The notes under the pieces are model-generated. The model ran no database searches and was not told the origin of the DNA. It worked only from the letters and a program-made list of their open reading frames with translations. Shown one piece after another: positions 2,909 to 31,328 of a stretch of DNA of 34,170 nucleotides; the stretch's first letter is position 1; the number at the start of each line of letters is the position of its first letter. The translations under genes and the position numbers were made by a program. Origin of the DNA: Bacteroidota bacterium (GTDB lineage Bacteria > Bacteroidota > Bacteroidia > Chitinophagales > UBA2359); the NCBI GenBank assembly GCA_020631155.1, contig JAHDHV010000016.1, forward strand, positions 1 through 34,170, in the 5' to 3' direction.

Positions 2909-3178
2909 GTAGGTATGATATTTGAAGTGTAATGAACTGTTTAAACTTTTATAAAGTATTGAAAAGTATTTTCTCCCCTTTTTTGACTATTTCAAGCTTT
3001 ATGTCTTATTGCTTTTGTGTATTTCTTGTCAAAAATAGCAATAAATTTCGCTTTTTGATACTATCAACCAGACAACTTTTGCTTTTTTATTGCTTCTATT
3101 TTTTTCTTGTCCTATAGCTACTTTTTGTACAACATTTTTAAAGGTGATTTAGTGCCATCATTTGTTAAGTAATACAGA

Positions 3179-3343
3179 AATAATGAGTTGTGAATCATAA
3201 ACCTAAAACTGTTTTAGACTATATGAAGCGAAAAACTTAAACATTGGTAGAAACATATTTCTACTACGGTAAGGTTTTTCAAGGAAATATAAAGCAAAAT
3301 AATAAAGCAAATTGCTTCAACTGATTATTGTAGAATTACTAAG
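3179..3343. repeat. Copy 1 of a ~150-165-bp dispersed element (termini AATAATGAGTTG ... CAACTGATTATTGTAGAATTACTAAG), homologous to 19601-19753
   Basis: Co-linear blocks align between the two copies (AATAAT.A.TTG..A.CATAAA; AAG(G)CGAAAAAC; TACGGyrAGGyTTTTCAAsG; AAGCAAAATAAyAAAGC; CAAyTGATTATTGTAGrATkACTAA). Confidence 0.5.
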
Positions 3344-3636
3344 AATAAAATTGTGTGTAGGTGAATAGTGCTTGACTATTTATCGCATAACAAAGTGCAC
3401 TAATAAACTGATTACAAAAAAATTACAAATAAATTTGATTTACCCTATATGTCATTAGATTTGATTTAAATTCATCGAAAAGATAAGGTTTTTAAAACAT
3501 AAAAATAATTTACTAATCAAAAAATGTTTCTTAACAGGTAGTTAAATTGTCCAAAACTTGCTATTTTTGGTTTTCTTACCTATCTTAAAGCTTTGAAAAC
3601 GATTATCTTTTACTAAATTGTATAACTATTGATTAA

Positions 3637-4194
3637 ATGCTTTACAAATTAACACTCAAAAACACCGATAAAAAGCTCATTGTCTCAGACAAGGTCTATG
3701 AAGCTTTAGCACGAAATGAATATTTTCAAAGTATTCAATTACTCAAGAATTTGCGGATTCACTCCTATGGTTATGCCTTCTTCCAGAAAAATTTTGCCAA
3801 GCCCGAAGGCGGCTATAAAAACATAACGATTTATATACATCGTTATGTGGCAGAAAACTTTGTAGAAAAACCGCAAAGCAATAAACGACTCCTCGTTAGT
3901 TTTCGTAACGGCAACCGCCTAGACTGTAGAGAAGAAAACATCATCTGGGTCACCGCCTCGCAATTGGTTCGCAATACCGAAGGCATCATCAGCAACAGCA
4001 CCGGCTATCGCGGCGTTACAAAGGTAAATAATAAATACCGAGCAGCCATTTTTAGGGGCAAAACTCGCTACGATCTTGGTGATTTTACCAGCCCCGAAGA
4101 AGCTGCACGAGCCTATAACCGCAAGTCTATCGAATGGTTTGGCGTGACTAAAAGCTTAAACAAAATTCCGGGCGAGGACATCCAAGTTCGTTGA
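3637..4194 (+). CDS. HNH endonuclease (HNH_3-like) fused to an AP2/ERF-type DNA-binding domain; homing-endonuclease-like
   Basis: HNH_3-like segment IHRYVAENF...FRNGNRLDCREENIIWV; AP2 signature YRGVTKVNNKYRAAIFRGKTRYDLGDFTSPEEAARAYNRKSIEWFG; local GC clearly above window average. Confidence 0.75.
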   Translation: MLYKLTLKNTDKKLIVSDKVYEALARNEYFQSIQLLKNLRIHSYGYAFFQKNFAKPEGGYKNITIYIHRYVAENFVEKPQSNKRLLVSFRNGNRLDCREENIIWVTASQLVRNTEGIISNSTGYRGVTKVNNKYRAAIFRGKTRYDLGDFTSPEEAARAYNRKSIEWFGVTKSLNKIPGEDIQVR

Positions 4195-6856: not shown

Positions 6857-6876
6857 TTTAATTATGAATTTATTTA

Positions 6877-6940
6877 ATTACGAATTACGAATTACGAATT
6901 ACGAATTACGAATTAGAAATTACGAATTAGAAATTACGAA
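6877..6940. repeat. Tandem 9-bp repeat (ATTACGAAT / ATTAGAAAT) x7
   Basis: Direct reading; same unit recurs at 27430-27462. Confidence 0.85.
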
Positions 6941-6995
6941 TTGTTGAATTATTATTTAGTCAACTGACCATTAATAATTCAACAATTCATTTTTT
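6941..6995 (+). terminator. Hairpin TTGTTGAATTATTA-loop17-TAATAATTCAACAA followed by TTCATTTTTT; likely ribBA terminator
   Basis: 14-bp perfect inverted repeat plus T-run. Confidence 0.55.
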
Positions 6996-16183: not shown

Positions 16184-16263
16184 CTAAAAATCTAAAAATC
16201 TAAAAATCTAAAAATCTAAAAATCTAAAAATCTAAAAATCCAAAAGTCCAAAAGTCCAAAAAT
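16184..16263. repeat. Tandem 8-bp repeats (CTAAAAAT x6, CCAAAAGT x2, CCAAAAAT) followed by a leader-like TCGAACTTCTAATTGCTAACCTCT
   Basis: Direct reading; same unit family as the 2111-2414 array. Confidence 0.85.
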
Positions 16264-16789
16264 CGAACTTCTAATTGCTAACCTCTATTCATTATGACGA
16301 TTGCAAACTATAAAAAAGATGGCTAAGTAAACCAATGTAATCAATTTTTGGTGTTTTTGATGTAATACATCCGCCAATTAGTTAAGAAATACACAAAGAA
16401 CTTAGCAGAAATAAGTAAATAGTGACTTTACTATGATAAATGTAGACTAAAATATAAGCGAAATAGTGTTAGCTTTTAGAAAGCTTGTAGAAGCATTTTA
16501 TGAATTGTTTTTACTGGAAAGATGTGAAGTTTTTTATATTTTAAGTTGATGATATTTTTTTTATTTAAAAGTTTGATAATCAAGTTAAAACCCAATTAAA
16601 AAGCTAATATCTGATTGCTGTTTACTGAAAAGCTAAAAGAAATATTGTTTTTTAGAAAAATTATAAGCCAATTCAGCATCTAAATTTGAATTTTACTTAT
16701 TTTTGTGACCATTTTGAGACATTTGTATTCCATTAAACCATTATATAGGCGCAGTCCTCAAGCCCCTACCAATCATTAACACAAGCTTT

Positions 16790-21742: not shown

Positions 21743-24061
21743 ATGATATTATTAAGTATTTTAGGGGCTCTAGGCGTTGCTGGCCTAGTCATTGTTGCCA
21801 TCATTTTAATGGGTATTATTGCCTTTATTGCCTCTTTTTATAGAAAAATTCCACAAGGTTCTGCCCTAGTTCGCACAGGTGCAGGCGGTACAAAAATTGG
21901 TTTTGACAGTGGAATGGTCGTTTTGCCTGTCCTTCACTTAGCCGAAATAATGGATATTGCGGTTAAAAAAGTGGAAATTGAACGTATGGGCAAAGACGGT
22001 TTGATTTGTAAAGACAATTTACGTGCAGACATCAAAGTAGTGTTTTTTGTTCGGGTAAATAAATCGGTGGAAGGTGTAGAGCGAGTAGCGCAAACCATTG
22101 GTTGTGCGCGTGCTTCAAGCATCGATACCTTGGTTACCTTATTTGAAGCGAAGTTTTCAGAAGCTCTAAAAACGGTTGGTAAACGCTTCGATTTTGTAGA
22201 CCTCTATGATTCGCGTGAAGCTTTTAAGCAAGAAATTATCAACGCAATTGGTACAGACCTAAATGGTTATGTATTAGATGATTGCGCTATTGATTATTTA
22301 GAGCAAACGCCTATCGAACATCTTAAAGAAAGCAATATTTTAGATGTAGAAGGTATCAAAAAAATCACTGAATTAACTGCTAGAGAAAAAATTAAAGCAA
22401 ATTTAATTCGTAGAGAGGAAGAAAAAACCATCAAAAAACAGGATGTTGAAGCCAAAGAAGCCATTTTGGAACTAGAGCGTCAATTGGCGGAAAAGGAAGA
22501 AATTCAAAGGCGAGAAATTGCCATTATTAAGGCAAGGGAAAGTGCAGAAACTCTGCGTGTGCAAGAGGAAGAACGCCTGAAAGCCGAGCGAGCAAGAATT
22601 ACAACAGAAGAAGAACTGCAAGTAGCCGAAGAAAATAAATTGCGACAAATTATTGTTGCTCAAAAAAATAAGGAGCGAACAGAAGCCATTGAAACAGAAA
22701 AAGTACATAAGGATAAGCAGTTGGAAGTGACAGAGCGAGAGAAAATTGTGGCTTTGGCGCAAATAGAAAAGGAAAAAGTGGTAGAGGAGGAGCGCAAAAA
22801 CATTCAGGATGTGATTAGAGAGCGCGTGATGGTAGAAAAAGCAGTGGTAGAGGAGGAAGAAAAAATCAAAGATACCAAAGCATTTGCCGAAGCAGAAAGA
22901 AATAAATCGGTTGCGATTACGGTTGCTGAACAGCAAGCAGAAGAAGCATTGGTGAAGCAATTGAAGGAAGCAGAAGCACAAAAATTGTCGGCAGAATGGA
23001 AAGCACAACAGCGATTAATTGATGCCGAAGCAGAAAAAAATGCATCAGCAAAAGAAGCAGAAGCCAAGAAAATTATGGCGGAAGCAATTGCAGCAGAGGA
23101 AGCAGCACTTGGGGTATCGGAAGCGCAAGTAATGGAAGCAAAAGCAATAGCCGTTGAGCGTCAAGGAGTTGTAGAAGCAAATATCATTACCAAAAAAGCA
23201 GAAGCGGAGGCAAAAGCAATTGCATTGAAAGCGGAGGCAGCCAAAAAGCGCGGTTTGGTAGAGGCAAATATAATGCAAGAAAAAGGTTTGGCAGAGGCAA
23301 GGGTTATCGAAGAAAAAGCCTTTGCAGAAGCCAAAGGTTTAGAGGAGCGCGGTGTGGCAGAAGCGAAAGTTTTGGAGCAGGCAGCATTAGCAGAGGCCAA
23401 AGGTATTGAAGAAAAAGGCAGCGCGGAAGCGAAAATTTTGGAGCAGGCAGCATTGGCAGAAGCCAAAGGCATTGCAGAAAAAGGCAGCGCAGAAGCAAAA
23501 ATTTTAGAAGAAGCAGCACTTGCAGAAGCCAAAGGTATTGAGCAGAAGGCAGAGGCGATGAAAAAATTGGATGGTGTAGGTAAAGAGCATGAGGAGTTCA
23601 AACTCAGATTGGAGAAGGAAAAAGCCATCGAATTGGCAGCCATCAAGATTCAGGAAGCCATTGCCGAGTCACAAGCTAAAGCCATTGCCGAAGCACTCAA
23701 ATCTGCAAATATCGACATTGTGGGTGGTGAAACGATGTTCTTTGAGAATATTGTAGAAGCTATTACAAGAGGTAAAACGATTGACAGAACGATTGATAAT
23801 AGCCAAAATTTGACGGCTTTGAAACATGGACTTTTAGGCAATACTGCGAATGGCGGCGGCAATGTGATGGATAAAATCAAAGGCTTTGTCAAGCAGTTCA
23901 ACTTAGATACAGAGGACATTAAAAACTTGTCCCTCACTGCTTTAATGGTGAAAATGATTGCAATGAGCAGCAATAGCAATGACAAAAGTATCTTAGGCGA
24001 ATTGCTTAATGTAGCCAAAGGAGTAGGCATCGCCAATAAAAAAGTAGATAGCTTGTTTTAA
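21743..24061 (+). CDS. Flotillin-family (SPFH/band 7) protein, unusually long (772 aa) with an extended Ala/Glu-rich coiled-coil repeat region
   Basis: N-terminal TM + SPFH domain (IPQGSALVRTGAGGTKIGFDSGMVVLPVLHLAEIMDI...); repeated AEAKGIEEKGSAEAKILEQAALAEAKGI units. Confidence 0.85.
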   Translation: MILLSILGALGVAGLVIVAIILMGIIAFIASFYRKIPQGSALVRTGAGGTKIGFDSGMVVLPVLHLAEIMDIAVKKVEIERMGKDGLICKDNLRADIKVVFFVRVNKSVEGVERVAQTIGCARASSIDTLVTLFEAKFSEALKTVGKRFDFVDLYDSREAFKQEIINAIGTDLNGYVLDDCAIDYLEQTPIEHLKESNILDVEGIKKITELTAREKIKANLIRREEEKTIKKQDVEAKEAILELERQLAEKEEIQRREIAIIKARESAETLRVQEEERLKAERARITTEEELQVAEENKLRQIIVAQKNKERTEAIETEKVHKDKQLEVTEREKIVALAQIEKEKVVEEERKNIQDVIRERVMVEKAVVEEEEKIKDTKAFAEAERNKSVAITVAEQQAEEALVKQLKEAEAQKLSAEWKAQQRLIDAEAEKNASAKEAEAKKIMAEAIAAEEAALGVSEAQVMEAKAIAVERQGVVEANIITKKAEAEAKAIALKAEAAKKRGLVEANIMQEKGLAEARVIEEKAFAEAKGLEERGVAEAKVLEQAALAEAKGIEEKGSAEAKILEQAALAEAKGIAEKGSAEAKILEEAALAEAKGIEQKAEAMKKLDGVGKEHEEFKLRLEKEKAIELAAIKIQEAIAESQAKAIAEALKSANIDIVGGETMFFENIVEAITRGKTIDRTIDNSQNLTALKHGLLGNTANGGGNVMDKIKGFVKQFNLDTEDIKNLSLTALMVKMIAMSSNSNDKSILGELLNVAKGVGIANKKVDSLF

Positions 24062-24220: not shown

Positions 24221-24268
24221 ACAACTCACAACTCACAACTCACAACTCACAACTCACAACTCACAACC
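24221..24268. repeat. Heptanucleotide tandem repeat (ACAACTC) x ~6.5 immediately upstream of the folC ATG
   Basis: Direct reading. Confidence 0.85.
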
Positions 24269-24273
24269 AATTC

Positions 24274-25578
24274 ATGACCTACCCACAAGCCATACATTAC
24301 CTAGAATACGAGTTACCTATGTACCAAAAGATAGGTGCAAAAGCTGCGAATATGGGTTTGCAAAACATCCAAAAACTATGCGCTTATCTAGGCAATCCAC
24401 AACGGCAATTTCGCAGCATCCACATTGCAGGCACGAATGGCAAAGGCTCTACCGCACACGCACTATCGGCAATTTTGCAAGAAAGCGGCTACAAAGTAGG
24501 TTTACACACTTCTCCCCATTACAATGACCTTCGAGAGCGCAATAAAATCAATGGGCAGTTGATGAGCAAAACGGCTGTTACGGCTTTTATCAACAAGCAT
24601 CAAACATTCCTAGAACACTTAAAACCTTCCTTTTTTGAGGTGCTAGTAGCAATGGGTTTTGATTATTTTGCCCAGCAAAAAGTAGATATTGCCATCATTG
24701 AAACAGGTCTGGGCGGCCGTTTAGATGCGACCAATATCATTATGCCAACTTTATCTATTATTACAAATATTGGAAAAGAACATGTGCAGTTTTTAGGAAA
24801 TACCCTAGCAAAAATTGCTTATGAAAAAGCAGGAATTATCAAGCCAAAAATACCTGTGGTAATTGGAGAAACGCATCCCGAAACAAAGTCTGTTTTTGAA
24901 GAAGTAGCTAATAAAAATAGTTCAAGCATTTATTTCGCTCAACAAAACTATACCACTGAAAATGAGTTGTTTAAATTAGATTCTACTACAATAGATGTTT
25001 TGCATCATCAAAAATTATTATATCCTCAATTACAAACAGATTTAACAGGTAATTTTCAACGAAATAATATTTTAACTGTTTTGCACGCAGTAGCTATTTT
25101 ACAAGAAAAAGAAATTTTTATTAAAAAAGAAAATGTATACAATGCGTTAAAAAAAGTGCGAAAATTAAGCAATTTAATAGGGCGATGGCAAATATTAAAA
25201 GCGCGAAACCCTACGATAATAGCAGATAGCGCACACAATCTAGCTGCTTGGAAATATGTAGTCAAACAACTGAATGATATAGCAGATAATTACGAACAAA
25301 TACATATGATTATTGGTATGGTGAAGGGCAAAAATGAGGCGGAAATACTATCATTATTACCTAAAACAGCAACTTACTACTGGTGCGCCCCTAATTTAGA
25401 GCGAGCTTTACCAGCTAACATTTTACAAAAAAAAGCTTACAAATTAGGTTTAAATGGAGAAGTTTATTCCTCTGAAAAAGAGGCATTTATTGAAGCTAAA
25501 AGAATAGCAAAAAGTAAGGATTTAATTTTTATTGGCGGAAGTAATTTTGTAGTTGCAGAAGTGTTAGGGGAGGAGTAA
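24274..25578 (+). CDS. folC: Folylpolyglutamate synthase / dihydrofolate synthase. The ORF-track start 24214 lies inside the heptamer repeat; ATG at 24274 (MTYPQAIHYLE) is preferred
   Basis: Mur-ligase P-loop IHIAGTNGKGSTAH; FolC-like overall architecture. Confidence 0.85.
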   Translation: MTYPQAIHYLEYELPMYQKIGAKAANMGLQNIQKLCAYLGNPQRQFRSIHIAGTNGKGSTAHALSAILQESGYKVGLHTSPHYNDLRERNKINGQLMSKTAVTAFINKHQTFLEHLKPSFFEVLVAMGFDYFAQQKVDIAIIETGLGGRLDATNIIMPTLSIITNIGKEHVQFLGNTLAKIAYEKAGIIKPKIPVVIGETHPETKSVFEEVANKNSSSIYFAQQNYTTENELFKLDSTTIDVLHHQKLLYPQLQTDLTGNFQRNNILTVLHAVAILQEKEIFIKKENVYNALKKVRKLSNLIGRWQILKARNPTIIADSAHNLAAWKYVVKQLNDIADNYEQIHMIIGMVKGKNEAEILSLLPKTATYYWCAPNLERALPANILQKKAYKLGLNGEVYSSEKEAFIEAKRIAKSKDLIFIGGSNFVVAEVLGEE

Positions 25579-25583
25579 AATAA

Positions 25584-25635
25584 TGTTGTTTTTGTTTCTA
25601 AAAATCTGTATTTTTGTAGAAAAAAAGAAATAAAT
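25584..25635. repeat. 52-bp direct repeat, copy 1 (TGTTGTTTTTGTTTCTAAAAATCTGTATTTTTGTAGAAAAAAAGAAATAAAT), abuts the abiEi ATG
   Basis: Identical to 27034-27085. Confidence 0.9.
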
Positions 25636-26263
25636 GAGCTTTTTTGAATTTCAAAATACCTTTGTTAAGCATCCTGTTATTTCAATATTAGAGATTAAAA
25701 AGTACTTTTCAAATTTTGATAATAATGCTTTAACTCGATGGCAAAAAAAAGGATATATAAGAAAAATTAGAAATGGTTTTTATCGTCTAAGCAAACCAAA
25801 GATTACTACTGTAGAAGAACTATTTTTTACTGCAAATCGCATTTATTGGCCTTCTTACATTTCGTTACATTCTGCTTTGCGATGGTATGATTTTATTCCA
25901 GAGGAAGTATTTTCAATAACCTCTGTTACTACTAAAAAAACACAGCAGTTTGAAACAGTAGATGGCACGTTTAAGTATCAAAATTTTAAAAAGAATCTGT
26001 TTTTTGGGTATAAACTAGAAAAGAATAATAAAGGATATTACTTTAAAATGGCAACACCAGAAAAAGCATTACTAGATTTTTTGTATTTGAATCCCCATCT
26101 TAAAACAGAAGATGATATTTTTGAATTGCGATTAAATGCTTTTGAAATTCAGGAGAAAGTAAATCTAAAAGTTTTAGATGCATATTTGTCACTTTTTGAT
26201 TCTAAAGCCTTAAATAAAAGAGTAAGTAATTTTAAAAAAATATTATATAATGAAAACTATTGA
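25634..26263 (+). CDS. abiEi: AbiEi-family antitoxin / transcriptional regulator (type IV TA)
   Basis: N-terminal wHTH GYIRKIRNGFYRL; core PSYISLHSALRWYDFIPEEVFSITSVTT typical of AbiEi; overlaps downstream abiEii by 14 nt. Confidence 0.8.
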   Translation: MSFFEFQNTFVKHPVISILEIKKYFSNFDNNALTRWQKKGYIRKIRNGFYRLSKPKITTVEELFFTANRIYWPSYISLHSALRWYDFIPEEVFSITSVTTKKTQQFETVDGTFKYQNFKKNLFFGYKLEKNNKGYYFKMATPEKALLDFLYLNPHLKTEDDIFELRLNAFEIQEKVNLKVLDAYLSLFDSKALNKRVSNFKKILYNENY

Positions 26264-27026
26264 TGAAATTTGTTCCTTTTATCCTTCTGCTTTGCATAAT
26301 CGGGGAGCTTTTTTGTTGAGGGAGTATTTACAGTATAAGATTTTAGAGATCATATTTCAAAGTGACTATGCCTTGAAATTTTCATTTTTAGGTGGAACTT
26401 GTTTACGTATTATCCATAATACTCAGCGATTTTCAGAAGATTTAGACTTTGATAATTTTGATTTATCAGAGAAAGATTTTGAATTAGTTTCAGAGGTAAT
26501 TAAAAATGGGTTAGAAGAGCAGGGCTTTCGCGTTGAAATGCGTAATGTCTTTCGAGCAGCATATCATTGTTATATTCGCTTTCCTGGATTATTATATAAA
26601 ATGGGGCTAAGTGGACATAAAGAGGCTAAAATTTTAATTAACTTAGATACAGAACCACAAAACTTTGTTTTTCAGTCTGAAACACATTTTTTAAATAAAT
26701 TTGATGTTTTTACCTCAATATATACGACTCCATTAGACCTATTATTAAGCCAAAAAATTCTAGCAATTACGCAAAGAAAGCGACCTAAAGGACGGGATTT
26801 TTACGATGTCGTTTTTTTGAGTGGGCATACAAAACCAAATTATGGTTTTTTAACACAACGTTTGTCTATTACTAATGCAGATGAACTAAGAATACATATG
26901 GAAGCTATTTGCAAAAAAAGGAATTTTCCACAACTAACTAAAGATGTTGAACCATTTTTATTTAATATAAAGGATCGGCAACGCATTTTATTATTTCCTG
27001 AATATCTTAAAACTATAAAATGGTAA
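26250..27026 (+). CDS. abiEii: AbiEii/AbiGii-family nucleotidyltransferase toxin (DUF1814)
   Basis: Motifs SFLGGTCLRI and RFSEDLDFDN characteristic of AbiEii nucleotidyltransferases. Confidence 0.85.
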   Translation: MKTIDEICSFYPSALHNRGAFLLREYLQYKILEIIFQSDYALKFSFLGGTCLRIIHNTQRFSEDLDFDNFDLSEKDFELVSEVIKNGLEEQGFRVEMRNVFRAAYHCYIRFPGLLYKMGLSGHKEAKILINLDTEPQNFVFQSETHFLNKFDVFTSIYTTPLDLLLSQKILAITQRKRPKGRDFYDVVFLSGHTKPNYGFLTQRLSITNADELRIHMEAICKKRNFPQLTKDVEPFLFNIKDRQRILLFPEYLKTIKW

Positions 27027-27033
27027 TCAATTG

Positions 27034-27085
27034 TGTTGTTTTTGTTTCTAAAAATCTGTATTTTTGTAGAAAAAAAGAAATAAAT
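27034..27085. repeat. 52-bp direct repeat, copy 2, identical to 25584-25635
   Basis: Exact match. Confidence 0.9.
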
Positions 27086-27108
27086 TAACTTTTAAAGACA
27101 AAGTATTT

Positions 27109-27429
27109 CTAATTATCCCGCCTAGGAAATGCCAACTTCATTAAAATTCCAATAAGCCCACCTGTAATAGCCCCTGCCAAAATGGTATGCGACCAAGTGC
27201 CAGAGGAGGCAGCAACAATAATAAAAAATAACGCACCAATCACCACACTAAGCCCAATAATACCACCACAACCAACAAAGAACCCATGATTCAGGTCTTT
27301 ATGAAACCAGCCGATAAAGGTGCCCATTAAGGTAGCAATGATAACGTTTAACCAATTCCCGTCAAATAGAAATAGTTGGATAAGTCCTAAAATAATGCCT
27401 GCAATGAAACCGCCGATGATGTCTCTCAA
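27109..27429 (-). CDS. GlsB/YeaQ/YmgE-family small membrane protein (transglycosylase-associated)
   Basis: Gly-rich TM helices IIGGFIAGIILGLI...GGIIGLSVVIGALFF...GAITGGLIGIL typical of the family. Confidence 0.7.
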   Translation of the reverse strand: MRDIIGGFIAGIILGLIQLFLFDGNWLNVIIATLMGTFIGWFHKDLNHGFFVGCGGIIGLSVVIGALFFIIVAASSGTWSHTILAGAITGGLIGILMKLAFPRRDN

Positions 27430-27462
27430 TTTAATTACGAATTAGAAATTACGAATTATGAA
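27430..27462. repeat. 9-bp ATTACGAAT / ATTAGAAAT repeats (same family as 6877-6940)
   Basis: Direct reading. Confidence 0.75.
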
Positions 27463-27515
27463 TTGTTTTTTTGGATGGGGGAGATATAAAGGTTTTCAAT
27501 CTAATTGATAAGTTT

Positions 27516-27851
27516 TTAATCAAGTGTTGCCAATAACCCCTCTAATGACTGTTCCCAGGGTTCATCAGTCATGAGTGTTTGTACTTCCTTGAATGTGATT
27601 GATTGATTGCCTTGTTCTTCAAATATTTGTTCTTTTGATATGGCTTTGCGAATGTTTATTTTTCCCAAGTGAAATTTATCCATCTCTTGTGGGCTAGGCG
27701 TTGTATTTTCCAAAGCTAATTGAACTGTTGTATAAATAGCTTGGAGTTGTTGATAATCTGTTATTTTTGTTATCAAGCTTATCAGGTCAAGTTTGATGTC
27801 ATTGAGTGAGTTTTCATTTTGTTTTTTTAGTTTTCCTTCAAGGAGTTTCAT
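27516..27851 (-). CDS. Hypothetical 111-aa protein, third gene of the UPF0175/DUF3368 operon (overlaps the PIN gene by 14 nt)
   Basis: Clean ORF, operon position; no recognisable motif. Confidence 0.4.
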   Translation of the reverse strand: MKLLEGKLKKQNENSLNDIKLDLISLITKITDYQQLQAIYTTVQLALENTTPSPQEMDKFHLGKINIRKAISKEQIFEEQGNQSITFKEVQTLMTDEPWEQSLEGLLATLD

Positions 27852-28326
27852 TTGCCATATTTAAAATGCGAATTTTAAGCTGGGGTTTGATATAGAACCC
27901 AACTTGTTCGAGTTCTGTCAAGATGAGTTTCACTTCTGGAATCAACTTTTGTGTCTTAGCATCAATCAATAAGCCTAACAAACCAATGGTGTTTAGCCCA
28001 ATTTCTCTAGCCTTTTTTGTTCCAATACGTTCATCAATCAATAACAGATTTGCATTTAATTCTTTGGCTAAAGTAATTGCTTCTGCTTCGCCTCTATCTA
28101 GCACTTTCAGTAAGTTTTGAACAGAAACATTGTTTTTAGGCTGCTGTATTCTTAACCAACTAGCTTGATTGTAACTTGTTAAGTCAATATTGAAATGAGC
28201 TAGTGCTAGGATTTCATTATGAACAAAAGGTGGGACTATCACCTCATTAAACAATTGACCTAGCAATTCAAACCGTCCAATTTGAATCAAGTTGCTGATA
28301 GGAGAGGTATCACTTACAACAATCAT
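27838..28326 (-). CDS. DUF3368-family PIN-like putative toxin
   Basis: N-terminus MIVVSDTSPISNLIQIGRFELL and LLIDERIG typical of DUF3368/COG2405 PIN-like proteins; 4-nt overlap with the upstream UPF0175 gene. Confidence 0.7.
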   Translation of the reverse strand: MIVVSDTSPISNLIQIGRFELLGQLFNEVIVPPFVHNEILALAHFNIDLTSYNQASWLRIQQPKNNVSVQNLLKVLDRGEAEAITLAKELNANLLLIDERIGTKKAREIGLNTIGLLGLLIDAKTQKLIPEVKLILTELEQVGFYIKPQLKIRILNMANETP

Positions 28327-28568
28327 TGTTTTCTTAATTTAGCTAAAGTTTTCATATCTTCTTCAAAATCTTCAATGTCATAATGAATAGGGATTTTACA
28401 TTTTGCCAACTCCCTTTGAAATTGTATTTGATGAATACCTGCAAGTTGACTGCCTTGACCTAGTGTTATTTTTTCTTCTTTAAAAAGTTCAATTGCCAAT
28501 TTCAACATAAGTGCCTCTATGCTTATACCAATCTGTGCTAGAAGTTGGTCTGGAATTTCAATTGTCAT
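28323..28568 (-). CDS. UPF0175-family putative antitoxin
   Basis: MTIEIPDQLLAQIG...LMLKLAIELFKEEKITLGQGSQLAG matches the UPF0175 pattern; paired with DUF3368. Confidence 0.7.
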   Translation of the reverse strand: MTIEIPDQLLAQIGISIEALMLKLAIELFKEEKITLGQGSQLAGIHQIQFQRELAKCKIPIHYDIEDFEEDMKTLAKLRKQ

Positions 28569-28665
28569 ATTTTTCTATTAAATGGATTAATGGGTATCTA
28601 TAAAATAACAGAGGCTTTAGGTGTTTGGTTTAACATCAAAAAAACGATTAGACCACTCATGGTAG

Positions 28666-28718
28666 AATTGGACAAGCCCTAAAATAATGCCTGTGATACA
28701 TCCGCCGATGATGTCTCT
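28666..28718 (-). pseudogene. Diverged (~82% identity) duplicate of the first ~17 codons of the GlsB-family gene (start ATG changed to ATA), 1.24 kb from the intact copy
   Basis: Alignment of 28666-28718 with 27374-27426; reverse-complement translation I-RDIIGGCITGIILGLVQ vs MRDIIGGFIAGIILGLIQ. Confidence 0.55.
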
Positions 28719-28745
28719 TATGTAGAAATGAATTATTAGTTATTT

Positions 28746-31328
28746 TTATTCGTTGAGCTTTTTTACCAATGAAAACAATCTAGAGGTGTCTACTATTACT
28801 TCATTTAATTGTTCTTTACTATATTTAGCTACTCTTGAATGAAAAGTTTCATTTCGTTCATCTATTGTGTACTCTTTTAAATTCTTTACCACTTGCTTTA
28901 TAATTAACTTAATTTCGTTAGTTTTGGAATTACCAAAATAGTTTAAAATAAAGTTGTGTTCTAACCACAGCCAATTTAAAACTTTTTTCATTTCACCAAG
29001 GCTAGAATAGTATATGAGATGTAAATCATTTTTTAAAGCTCTATTTCTATTATATTCCCATTTAGATACTAACTTTGAGTTTCTTTTATTTACAAAATCT
29101 TCAAATGTTATGTCATTTTCAAAAAGTTCAATTACAAAAATTCTTAATTGCTCTTCCGAGTTTATTAAGTGAGTCGTTATTTTTTGTATCATATTTTCTT
29201 GTTCTTCTTCAGCAATCATTTTCTTTGCTTTTGCATAAACACTTTTGCAGTTTTCATCATTAAGGGCAATCCTCTTATGATCTTCAAATGTTATAAGTAT
29301 TCTTTCCCAATCACGCTCACTTGCATGGATTTGTAATAAAACTCTTAATGCATTTTTTTCATACTCAATATCTGTGTCTTTATCTGAGTAGGTTAATATT
29401 TTTTTTGCTATTTTCTTTGCTTTTTCATAATCTCTATCTTTACTTGAGGTATAGTAGTTCATGTCCTTTACAAAATAATTGATGGAATTTTTTATCTTAT
29501 TTTCATAGAGTCTTATTTTACTATTAATCTTATCATTAGAAAAAATTTTCAGATATTTAGTATGAACTTTCTTTTTTTCTTTTAAATATTTTATTTTATT
29601 TTCAATACTGTCATCTTCCTTAACTAGTTTATCTACTAATTGTAAATAAATATTTTTTTCCTTATGCACAAGTAAAGTCAATTCAATACTTTTCCATTCC
29701 CGTAAAAATTCTATTTTATCAGCAATTCGTTCATTATTATATTGACTAATTATTTTTTTTGCTTCCTCCCTTAGTATTTCAAATCTTTTTAAATATTTAT
29801 ATATGTTAATGTACTGTTTTGCAATTGAGGTGTCATATGATGTTTCTTTTAAAGCGTTTATTGCTATGTTAATTGCAACTTGTCTTCTTTTGGGACGCTG
29901 TTCCATTTTTATCCAATCAAACCATATGTTTTTATTAGTTGGATTGAGCTCTGTAGCTCTACGAAAATTTTCAGATGCTTTAGAATACAAATAAAGAACA
30001 GTTTGTACTTTTGCTAACTCATGATATAATCTATAATCTTCAATTCTTTCAATTGCATTTATTAGTGAATTTTCAGCTCCCTTATAATCTAAGTCATTTA
30101 AATAGATTTTTAATCTTTCAAGAAATAAGTCAACTTTATCTTTAGAAATCTCCTTATTTAGCATCGCATTTTTAAGTCCAAGTACTTTGTTCTCTATTTC
30201 GTCGTAGTCTATATAGTGCTGTTTAGCAAAATTTATAGCCATCTTACTTATTATTATTTCTCCATTAGCACTTTCAGCAATCAACTGATTTGCATAGAGT
30301 TCATCAATAATTTGCTCCAGTTTGCCAGAATCAAAGTTACTATAGTTCATTAGAGTTTCTATTGTGATAGGTTCATCTTTTTTACTCCGATTTCTATGTA
30401 ATGAAGTTATTATTTTAAATATCAACTGTGTATCTGTGTTCAATGATTCATACATATCCTTGAAACTAAATAGGATTATTTCAGACATTCTTTGTTTTTT
30501 CTCTTTAGGCGTTTTAGCATCTTCAATACTAGGATAACCCTCAAGTTCTTGAAAAATTTGCCCTCTAGACTTACCTCTGATTAGTTGTCCAATTATAAAT
30601 TCAATAGCTAGTGGAATTTTTCCAACTCGTTCTATTAACTTTAAGTTCATCTTTTCGGAAGAATTGATGATTTCAAGAATTCTCTTTTCTCTATTATTTT
30701 CTGCTAACCATATTAACATATCATAGGCTTTTGTCAGAGAAAGACCTTGTATTTCAATAGGAAAGTCTGCTATCTTTTTTCTTTTTCGTGATGTAGTTAA
30801 CACTTTTAAATATCTATTATTTCGGCTATATTTATTGAATTTTCTGAGAAAAGTGAAAAAATCGGGATTATTTATCGTCTCCAAGTTATCTAATACAAAA
30901 AAGATTTTTTCATCTTTTACAATTTCTTCAAAAAAACTCTTTCGTTCTAGAAAAGGATGTTTAAGGAATTCGGGGAATCCAGCTAATCTAATAGTTTCAT
31001 CAATTAATATTTCAATTGGCTTATCTTTGAATTCATTTTTTATATTTATTATTTGATTATCTGTTGCAAAGGCATCAAAAACAGTATTCTTCGCTGTAAC
31101 CCAAACAAGGTAACTAAAATCACCACTTTTAAGCAAATATTCTTTACAGAAATAATAGGCTAGTGCTGTTTTGCCAATTCCACCAATTCCATCTATAGAG
31201 GCTATATATGTGCCACCTTCAATTAATTCATCTTTGATTTTTGAAATTGTGTTTTCACGACCAAAAAATTTCATATATGGTTGATTTGGTAAATTGTGAG
31301 TTGTTTTTGTATATGTTAGCTCTTTCAT
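28746..31328 (-). CDS. STAND-class NTPase (NB-ARC-like P-loop at residues ~45-55) followed by ~600 aa of TPR/helical repeats; no recognisable N- or C-terminal effector domain
   Basis: P-loop IDGIGGIGKTALAYYF; Walker B FFVLDNLE; repetitive helical remainder with frequent Y/W/K-rich ~34-aa periodicity. Confidence 0.7.
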   Translation of the reverse strand: MKELTYTKTTHNLPNQPYMKFFGRENTISKIKDELIEGGTYIASIDGIGGIGKTALAYYFCKEYLLKSGDFSYLVWVTAKNTVFDAFATDNQIINIKNEFKDKPIEILIDETIRLAGFPEFLKHPFLERKSFFEEIVKDEKIFFVLDNLETINNPDFFTFLRKFNKYSRNNRYLKVLTTSRKRKKIADFPIEIQGLSLTKAYDMLIWLAENNREKRILEIINSSEKMNLKLIERVGKIPLAIEFIIGQLIRGKSRGQIFQELEGYPSIEDAKTPKEKKQRMSEIILFSFKDMYESLNTDTQLIFKIITSLHRNRSKKDEPITIETLMNYSNFDSGKLEQIIDELYANQLIAESANGEIIISKMAINFAKQHYIDYDEIENKVLGLKNAMLNKEISKDKVDLFLERLKIYLNDLDYKGAENSLINAIERIEDYRLYHELAKVQTVLYLYSKASENFRRATELNPTNKNIWFDWIKMEQRPKRRQVAINIAINALKETSYDTSIAKQYINIYKYLKRFEILREEAKKIISQYNNERIADKIEFLREWKSIELTLLVHKEKNIYLQLVDKLVKEDDSIENKIKYLKEKKKVHTKYLKIFSNDKINSKIRLYENKIKNSINYFVKDMNYYTSSKDRDYEKAKKIAKKILTYSDKDTDIEYEKNALRVLLQIHASERDWERILITFEDHKRIALNDENCKSVYAKAKKMIAEEEQENMIQKITTHLINSEEQLRIFVIELFENDITFEDFVNKRNSKLVSKWEYNRNRALKNDLHLIYYSSLGEMKKVLNWLWLEHNFILNYFGNSKTNEIKLIIKQVVKNLKEYTIDERNETFHSRVAKYSKEQLNEVIVDTSRLFSLVKKLNE

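Follow-up and report, generated by a model that had tools for sequence, protein, structure and literature searches.

The AbiE type IV toxin-antitoxin (TA) and abortive infection (Abi) system of S. agalactiae was described by Dy et al. 2014 (PMC3985639), and the structure of its antitoxin AbiEi is available as 6Y8Q (PMC7319586). Systems of this type pair a toxin that arrests growth with an antitoxin that counteracts it, and abort phage infection. The S. agalactiae promoter PabiE carries the inverted repeat TGTTGCTTTTA-N27-TAAAAGCAACA, which can be extended to two 23-bp repeats, overlaps the promoter and binds two AbiEi monomers (PMC3985639, PMC7319586); published AbiE operators are inverted repeats that span about 49 bp over the promoter (PMC3985639, PMC7319586). 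The AbiE homologue of M. tuberculosis, Rv2827c-Rv2826c, has four inverted repeats that make up two operator pairs (PMC7319586), and direct repeats that flank TA regions in mycoplasmas have been read as recombination scars (PMC8562856). Here we describe an AbiE operon in the window, by which we mean a whole 34,170-bp contig (JAHDHV010000016.1) from a metagenome-assembled genome (MAG) of a Bacteroidota bacterium. The operon is bracketed by two identical copies, R1 and R2, of a 52-bp sequence. The evidence presented below argues that the 52-mer is the operator of a compact mobile cassette, and that R2 is a young and probably neutral scar; we consider this the probable explanation. The two repeats and the genes between them are as follows.

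25584 to 25635, plus strand: R1, copy 1 of the predicted abiE promoter-operator, 52 nt, a perfect repeat that is conserved upstream of abiEi in other lineages
25634 to 26263, plus strand: abiEi, 209 aa, predicted antitoxin and winged-helix autorepressor, from PADLOC and a fold match
26250 to 27026, plus strand: abiEii, 258 aa, predicted DUF1814 nucleotidyltransferase toxin, from PF08843 and PADLOC
27034 to 27085, plus strand: R2, copy 2 of the predicted promoter-operator, identical to R1, starting 7 nt past the abiEii stop

R1 and R2 agree at 52/52 positions and are spaced 1,450 nt apart. They are the only two matches to the 52-mer in the window with up to three mismatches allowed, and no match was found in 100 dinucleotide-preserving shuffles of the window. 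A geometry scan of the whole window for genes bracketed by an exact repeat of at least 19 nt returned the AbiE cassette only. Two bases of the abiEi start codon (ATG = 25634-25636) fall within R1. Past the perfect block a weak similarity continues (25579-25643 versus 27029-27093; 65 nt, 94%), and to its right 6/8 bases agree (GAGCTTTT versus TAACTTTT), an agreement that we estimate would arise by chance about 2% of the time in AT-rich DNA. The initial annotation had reported two identical 52-bp copies around an AbiEi/AbiEii pair, the first of them overlapping the abiEi start. Its coordinates were confirmed, the 'AT' of the ATG does lie in R1, and PADLOC and Pfam matches together with the predicted AbiEi fold agree on the identity of the pair.

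The operon is bicistronic with the antitoxin gene first, as in other AbiE systems; both genes lie on one strand and overlap by 14 nt. AbiEii matched PF08843 above its cut-off (E 1.2e-19) and the PADLOC AbiEii model over its full length (E 2.6e-97). In an alignment of 35 homologues (A1), residues G48, G49, R60, D64, K169, R176, R182, D183 and D186 are invariant and D66 is conserved in at least 90%. These residues fit motifs I-IV of the toxin family: hG[GS]..DhD with the motif II arginine, K...R, and +DxxD (PMC3985639). Saprospirales and Lewinellaceae-type Bacteroidota have many AbiEii homologues at 60-76% identity. AbiEi matched the PADLOC AbiEi model over its full length (E 1.4e-65), whereas its matches to NCBIfam TAA_AbiEi (E 2.8e-7, 30 bits, under the cut-off of 150) and Pfam AbiEi_4 (E 0.049, weak) did not reach threshold, and a sequence-only search of the PDB returned no match. 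As no Pfam or NCBIfam threshold was reached by sequence, we modelled the fold with AlphaFold (AF2) from 50 homologues (predicted local distance difference test, pLDDT, 94; predicted template modelling score, pTM, 0.87). The top PDB match of the model by Foldseek was S. agalactiae AbiEi 6Y8Q (E 2.8e-7, probability 1.00, 208 columns), and Rv2827c (1ZEL) ranked third after two 6Y8Q chains. The model is consistent with the AbiEi fold of an N-terminal winged helix and a C-terminal antitoxicity domain. Gene order, toxin motifs and the predicted antitoxin fold together identify the locus as a bona fide AbiE system.

The 52-mer begins 2 nt upstream of a candidate -33 element, ends on the second base of the start codon, and contains the following features, whose conservation was assessed in alignment A2 of the corresponding regions from other lineages.

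25586 to 25588, plus strand: candidate -33 element TTG, 20 nt upstream of the -7 box, assigned from the sequence
25589 to 25599, plus strand: left inverted-repeat arm TTTTTGTTTCT, a predicted AbiEi half-site; TTTC and the flanking T's are invariant or nearly so in A2
25609 to 25616, plus strand: -7 box TATTTTTG of the Bacteroidota sigma-A type (consensus TAnnTTTG); TAT.TTTG is conserved in A2
25626 to 25634, plus strand: right inverted-repeat arm AGAAATAAA, a predicted AbiEi half-site; GAAA is invariant in A2

In Bacteroidota the -7 consensus of the primary sigma factor, TAnnTTTG, occupies positions -12 to -5 (PMC7366714, PMC9723704), and the consensus around -33 is TTTG (PMC7366714). A sigma-70 promoter scan was disregarded, as such a model does not apply to Bacteroidota. 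Most lineages have TTG or CTG at the place equivalent to the candidate -33 element. From the position of the box, transcription would start near 25621, and the right arm would then fall between this position and the ATG. The left-arm sequence TTTGTTTCT agrees with the reverse complement of the right arm at 8/9 positions, the arm centres lie about 35 bp apart, and in several lineages the arms form a perfect 14-15-nt palindrome (TTTTGTTTCTAAAA ... TTTTAGAAACAAAA). Inverted half-sites within the 52-mer, which the initial annotation had proposed to look for, are therefore present. The conserved blocks of A2 read TTTTGTTTCY for the left arm, TATWTTTG for the box and AGAAAYAAA for the right arm; the columns of the two arms and of the box show no or almost no variation, even at protein identities of only 33-72%. 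This conservation of inverted arms around a -7 box is what would be looked for in an operator to which AbiEi is predicted to bind, and it argues that the 52-mer is the cassette's own minimal promoter-operator.

Going by S. agalactiae AbiEi and Rv2827c, we propose that AbiEi binds and represses this promoter. Two AbiEi molecules on the arms, which are the likely half-sites, would block RNA polymerase and so bring about negative autoregulation of the abiEi-abiEii operon. That AbiEi autoregulates through repeats in its promoter had been stated at the outset, and agrees with the literature, where these repeats are inverted (PMC3985639, PMC7319586).

The window locus and the S. agalactiae system share bicistronic, overlapping genes with the antitoxin first, the DUF1814 toxin motifs I-IV, the two-domain antitoxin fold, and an inverted-repeat pair that spans approximately 47-52 bp over the promoter core just upstream of abiEi. 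The two AbiEi proteins are approximately 16% identical, and the arm sequences differ (TTTTGTTTCYAAAA in the window clade versus TGTTGCTTTTA in S. agalactiae). Unlike PabiE, the window promoter is of the Bacteroidota sigma-A type (-33/-7) and has no Shine-Dalgarno sequence, and unlike the S. agalactiae locus, the window system has an extra complete operator copy after abiEii. Rv2827c shows that an AbiEi-fold repressor can be served by more than one operator pair at an AbiE locus; however, its pairs lie in tandem within -1 to -131 of the promoter, whereas the second unit in the window is an exact duplicate located downstream, 1,450 bp away.

The arms-plus-box layout occurs directly upstream of abiEi in approximately 15 other lineages, at unrelated sites and with AbiEii proteins that are 33-76% identical. 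These include loci in which AbiEii is only 33-55% identical (L036, L044, L048, L053, L062, L072, L074), as well as L095, L101, L105, L108, L096, L098, L099, L100 and L107; the carriers include four GTDB genomes (Saprospiraceae, Bacteroidales, Prevotellaceae) and one viral contig. L107 is the only viral contig that carries both the operator and an AbiE pair, and is uninformative on mechanism. The P0123 lineage (AbiEii 71% identical, 15 contigs) has the cassette between xylB (xylulokinase) and xylA (xylose isomerase). In this lineage (L085-L094) it is separated from xylB by 51 nt and from the ATG of xylA by 3 nt, inside an apparent xylBA operon. The 51-nt gap before abiEi in these P0123 loci reads ...TTTTGTTTCTAAAAATCTGTATTTTTGTAGAtaaatAGAAATAAAatg, and in L085-L093 it contains a 31-nt exact match to window 25590-25620 plus a GAAATAAA-ATG tail. 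Nucleotide identity between the window and L085 is 97% over 25592-25621, approximately 70% over the coding sequence and approximately 45% in the flanks, and homology to L085 runs only from approximately 25587-25590 to the abiEii stop at 27026. Because homology between lineages ends at the left edge of the 52-mer and at the abiEii stop, the mobile unit would consist of the 52-mer, abiEi and abiEii:

25584 to 27033, plus strand: one full cassette unit (R, abiEi, abiEii and 7 nt), 1,450 bp, from homology boundaries and G+C content

The G+C content of the cassette is 0.283 versus 0.368 and 0.304 in its flanks, and in five other hosts the cassette likewise exceeds its surroundings in A+T, making six in all (in L105, 0.42 versus 0.56-0.59). 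Insertion sites differ between hosts, and include xylB|xylA, a position 3' of recG, a position beside an FG-GAP gene and one beside a Cu-oxidase gene. Taken together, the boundaries and sites indicate that the cassette is a compact, horizontally acquired unit found at unrelated chromosomal locations; the clade would move as a very compact unit of approximately 1.45 kb that is accommodated even in the xylB/xylA gap.

We searched for the operator core in 596 Gb of species-representative genomes, which do not include the source genome, and found 5 matches, one per locus, with 4/5 directly upstream of an abiEi homologue. The exception, L097, is a Prevotella MAG in which an operator-pattern match (730-766) is followed by the ATG of a different or very divergent protein; in L097 and in L106, a giant-virus MAG contig, no AbiEi homologue was detectable downstream of the operator pattern. 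These counts bear on whether the 52-mer could be a dispersed genome-wide repeat, similar to a repetitive extragenic palindrome (REP) or miniature inverted-repeat transposable element (MITE), that flanks abiE by chance. The source genome is rich in short intergenic repeats, as such an origin would have it. The 52-mer nevertheless occurs only twice in 34 kb, and its core is rare and almost confined to abiEi promoters, so that a high-copy repeat unrelated to abiE, the case raised against the initial annotation's own proposal, is not what we see. We give this explanation almost no credence.

The same comparison bears on a target-site duplication, in which a cassette made up of the genes only would have inserted into the spacer between folC and the membrane-protein gene to its right, doubling 52 bp of host DNA. 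Direct repeats that hug an insert do resemble a target duplication; other AbiE loci have flanking repeats that are not operators (71 nt in L070, 58 nt in L054, 44 nt in L049), and a second TA cassette in the window is bracketed by a 51-nt repeat derived from the 5' end of a neighbouring gene. Against this, the 52-mer directly adjoins abiEi in unrelated hosts and at unrelated sites, is more conserved than the coding DNA, and provides the operon with its promoter and with two start-codon bases. The structure is also not that of a transposon, in that the repeat is itself cassette sequence and no transposase or integrase was found among the window open reading frames (ORFs) tested. We consider a target-site duplication extremely unlikely. 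Of the two origins offered by the initial annotation, duplication of the abiE promoter/operator region therefore stands, while duplication of the folC 3' flank does not, since the 52-mer travels with abiEi in unrelated hosts.

R2 retains every sub-feature of the predicted operator, with intact arms at 27039-27049 and 27076-27084 and an intact box at 27059-27066. No ORF follows it on the plus strand, and ATT stands in place of the ATG. Since the cassette ends are the left edge of the 52-mer and the abiEii stop, R2 sits exactly where a second head-to-tail unit would begin, and the window structure amounts to 1.036 units: a complete unit followed, in head-to-tail register, by the initial 52 nt of another. 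The 0/52 differences between the copies suggest that R2 is recent. Every other lineage that we examined has a single copy of the repeat, and the 8-10-kb loci examined were all single-copy. The finding looks like an ordinary mobile AbiE cassette with a young scar of recombination, and not a new kind of element. Two routes could have produced it. The cassette may have been duplicated in tandem, with subsequent loss of the second gene pair, which would be tolerable because the first copy supplies the antitoxin; alternatively, a piece slightly longer than unit length may have been inserted from a tandem or circular form. Internal deletions do occur in such cassettes, in line with the first route: an abiEi on L108 is followed by only the last 36 codons of abiEii, an internal deletion having taken most of the toxin gene. 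This orphan is the closest AbiEi relative, at 67% (loci 3052-3778 and 6694-7669 on L108), and the same contig also has a second AbiE pair, complete and on the opposite strand, at a distance of 3 kb.

Several points weigh against this interpretation. Neither a tandem array nor a circle junction was found at any other locus, and among the loci checked only one contig, L001, closes on itself. Duplication followed by deletion requires a deletion that ends exactly at the start codon, and inspection of the sequence revealed no clear microhomology at either junction. The window is a MAG contig, and its folC-R-abiEi and abiEii-R-membrane-gene joins rest on the assembler. The predicted binding of AbiEi to the arms draws on conservation and on homologues with no more than about 16% identity. 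Finally, there are two cases only, the window and L053, and a selected function of R2 is thus possible.

To survey downstream operator copies, the 70-nt upstream region of each locus was aligned locally to the 400 nt after its abiEii. Only the window (score 52) and L053 (28.5) exceeded the within-locus controls. L053, whose AbiEii is 35% identical to that of the window, carries 41 nt of its own operator a second time, 44 nt past abiEii, and 36/41 positions agree (608-649 and 2074-2115). In the later copy the -7 box is destroyed and the left arm is partly lost, and a convergent RtcB-like gene follows. A third, partial operator-like copy is present upstream in L053, at approximately 541-575. The downstream copy in L053 is best read as an older, independent and decaying instance, and its state fits neutral decay. 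Because that copy has decayed and other loci lack one, we favor a recurrent accident over a conserved function. A conserved downstream operator as a design feature was rejected as the default, with the window and L053 being the only positives.

Selection could nonetheless have kept R2, either as a second operator that acts by looping or by titration of AbiEi, or as a promoter under AbiEi control whose antisense RNA would be directed against the membrane-protein gene and the TA operon that follows. R2 has all its promoter and operator elements intact, it points into convergent genes with no terminator-like fold in between (z = -0.56), and L053 has the same layout of an operator copy followed by a convergent gene. 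We consider this unlikely, as a downstream copy is absent from approximately 50 other independent AbiE loci, all close relatives included, the box and left arm of the L053 copy have decayed, and the youth of R2 explains its perfect identity equally well. We also found no paper that describes an AbiE operator copy downstream of the operon. A role for R2 as a terminator or hairpin was tried and rejected; its fold energy is ordinary (z = -0.56, +0.08) and no terminator-like site was found there.

Even as a neutral scar, R2 adds a second predicted AbiEi site and a predicted AbiEi-repressible promoter that points outward, antisense into the convergent membrane-protein gene. It could act as a decoy operator for AbiEi, as the initial annotation suggested; if R2 proved active, no remote operator or antisense promoter would have been described for AbiE before it. 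The 52 bp of perfect homology would also allow RecA-type looping-out of the cassette as a 1,450-bp circle, or its amplification: RecA-dependent exchange in E. coli needs a minimum of roughly 25-50 bp, which 52 bp exceeds. In that sense the window would show cleanly, in nature, how a small defence or TA cassette can gain flanking homology for looping-out or amplification. The mycoplasma scars, like the join points of tandem duplications, are similar in that short direct repeats bracket a small TA cassette and offer a substrate for looping-out or amplification. Unlike those anonymous repeats, the one in the window is the cassette's own predicted regulatory region, in head-to-tail register.

Short-read contigs provide a separate view of the locus. 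The Logan k=31 contigs of SRR14415273 and SRR14415274 match the window at 100% identity, on both sides of the cassette as well. L001 (Logan, SRR14415273) corresponds to window 25584-27063 and is 1,480 nt long, that is 1,450 + 30, with its prefix equal to its suffix over k-1 bases. It forms a closed cassette loop in the k=31 graph, with no edge into the membrane-protein gene. L001 fits an R-cassette-R loop; it could equally come from a chromosomal R-cassette-R arrangement with a coverage gap in a low-coverage graph. The contigs L002 and L003 end at 27431 and 27430, and strain heterogeneity at R2 was entertained as a cause and rejected: the ends coincide with an AATTACG heptamer array, which has 26-27 exact bases in common with 6904-6930.

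L001 and the status of the window as a metagenome-assembled contig also raise the question of an assembly artefact, in which the chromosome carries at most one R between folC and the membrane-protein gene, and assembly led a separate R-element through the common 52-mer; the cassette is indeed an isolated loop in the k=31 graphs. In that case a host-side R would itself need explaining, R being cassette sequence, and a 1.45-kb circle with no replication gene is implausible as a plasmid. The identity of Logan contigs to the window on both sides of the cassette also argues against an artefact. Common assemblers finish with k > 52, and thus need reads that span such a repeat. We consider an artefact very unlikely.

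The head-to-tail register and L001 are also what would be seen if the 52-mer were an att-like recombination site, with a 1,450-bp circle recombining with a resident R and AbiEi possibly serving as an architectural factor. The unit is very compact, has tight boundaries and occupies many different sites, and the repeat spans almost exactly the predicted operator footprint. We regard this explanation as quite unlikely. All other lineages have one R only, and a first insertion into a site with no R has no partner. Apart from abiEi and abiEii the cassette has no genes, neither it nor the neighbours tested yielded a recombinase domain, and no catalytic activity is known for AbiEi. L001 is equally expected from a chromosomal arrangement with a coverage gap, as noted. 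An integrase island would have a tyrosine or serine recombinase in it or close to it, and repeats that match its att core, commonly the 3' end of a tRNA gene; the cassette does not fit that picture, and the only tRNA in the window lies at 227-301.

Integron attC sites are imperfect palindromes with RYYYAAC / GTTRRRY cores at the cassette boundary, and occur with an integron integrase or in arrays of different attC sites. By inspection, made with no formal attC model, the 52-mer lacks GTTRRRY and its boundary reads TGTTGTT, unlike that of an integron cassette. Integron cassettes are similar to the window unit in being compact and promoter-poor or self-promoted, in often being TA cassettes, in being separated by repeats, and in having a circular intermediate. 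They differ in that no integrase was found here and no attC core is visible, while the repeat in the window is the predicted promoter-operator of one family and other copies of the cassette have a single repeat. A bolder version of the recombination idea would have the operator double as the recombination site, with the cassette excising as a circle, L001 being that circle or a tandem array, and re-entering chromosomes. The operator as bent by AbiEi would be the synaptic element, and a host or unknown enzyme would do the chemistry. If true, a repressor-operator pair would underlie a cassette system that resembles integrons, with R-cassette-R as the integrated or amplifiable state; we judge it very improbable indeed.

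The conserved layout provides an operator consensus for a large Bacteroidota AbiE clade, namely TTTTGTTTCYAAAA, approximately 17 nt that include TAnnTTTG, TTTTAGAAAYAAAA and the ATG. This consensus can serve as a probe for binding and reporter work, and as a tag for finding such cassettes.

The cassette lies between two host genes.

24274 to 25578, plus strand: folC, left host flank (TIGR01499, E 4.3e-106), with its stop 5 nt before R1
27109 to 27429, minus strand: 106-aa ORF with multiple transmembrane segments, right host flank, convergent with abiE, no family assigned

The nearest FolC relatives, from Chitinophagales and Pedobacter MAGs, are only 54% identical, so that no syntenic relative was available to show the folC site empty of abiE; neither FolC nor the 106-aa membrane ORF had a match when looked up exactly. 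The source organism is a deep-branching member of the Bacteroidota, and a neighbouring gene carries a type IX secretion system (T9SS) sorting domain. The initial annotation had labelled the 106-aa ORF glsB and proposed that R2 places it under AbiEi control. The label finds no support: the ORF has no significant Pfam or NCBIfam match (best E 0.089), PF04226 is absent up to E = 10, and nothing resembling GlsB/YeaQ/YmgE appeared in these searches. Control as proposed is also unlikely, given that the gene is not shown to be glsB and that R2 lies beyond its 3' end. The sole route by which AbiEi could act on this ORF would be antisense or convergent transcription from R2's own promoter.

Downstream of folC the window contains a small defence islet (25584-31328) made up of AbiE, a UPF0175 and DUF3368 pair (PADLOC candidate system PDC-S70) and an 860-aa NB-ARC (STAND-type) protein at 28746-31328. 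A second direct repeat, 27376-27426 / 28668-28718 in the minus-strand reading (51 nt, 86% identical, spacing 1,292), brackets a cassette of UPF0175, DUF3368 (PIN-like, PADLOC PDC-S70) and a 111-aa protein. The copy at 28718-28668 is an orphan fragment that corresponds to codons 2-18 of the 106-aa ORF (RDIIGGCITGIILGLVQ...), preceded by ATA versus the TTG of the gene. From this correspondence, the UPF0175/DUF3368 cassette is evidently bracketed by the duplicated 5' end of the adjacent gene, and its repeat is older than that of AbiE.

Long flanking repeats are present in several of 49 metagenome AbiE loci (L083, L070, L054, L049 and L053). Those outside the operator are 44-159 nt long and unrelated in sequence (L070, 3113-3183/4756-4826; L054, 3177-3234/5057-5114; L049, 387-430/2047-2090; L083, 26-184/2195-2353); the L083 and L054 repeats are members of multi-copy arrays, which also stand between neighbouring genes. 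Compared with a geometry-matched control the excess is modest, at 5/26 real versus 12/464 shifted placements, or 3/45 by locus. Flanking repeats were therefore not used as a general property of AbiE cassettes, given this modest excess and the membership of some repeats in multi-copy arrays.

Intergenic short tandem repeats occur in the window at 24221-24267, 6876-6942, 27433-27464, 16184-16264, 2107-2406 and 1886-1955. Their units include a heptamer ACAACTC (x6.7) just upstream of folC, AATTACG (x9.6 and x4.6), an octamer CTAAAAAT (x10) and a 16-mer (x18.8). The AATTACG arrays have 26-27 exact bases in common and coincide with short-read contig breaks. A 772-aa ORF at 21743-24061, with no Pfam or NCBIfam match, contains A/E/K-rich 33/66-nt coding repeats (23252-23552); the GC and AT skews are strongly positive over this ORF.

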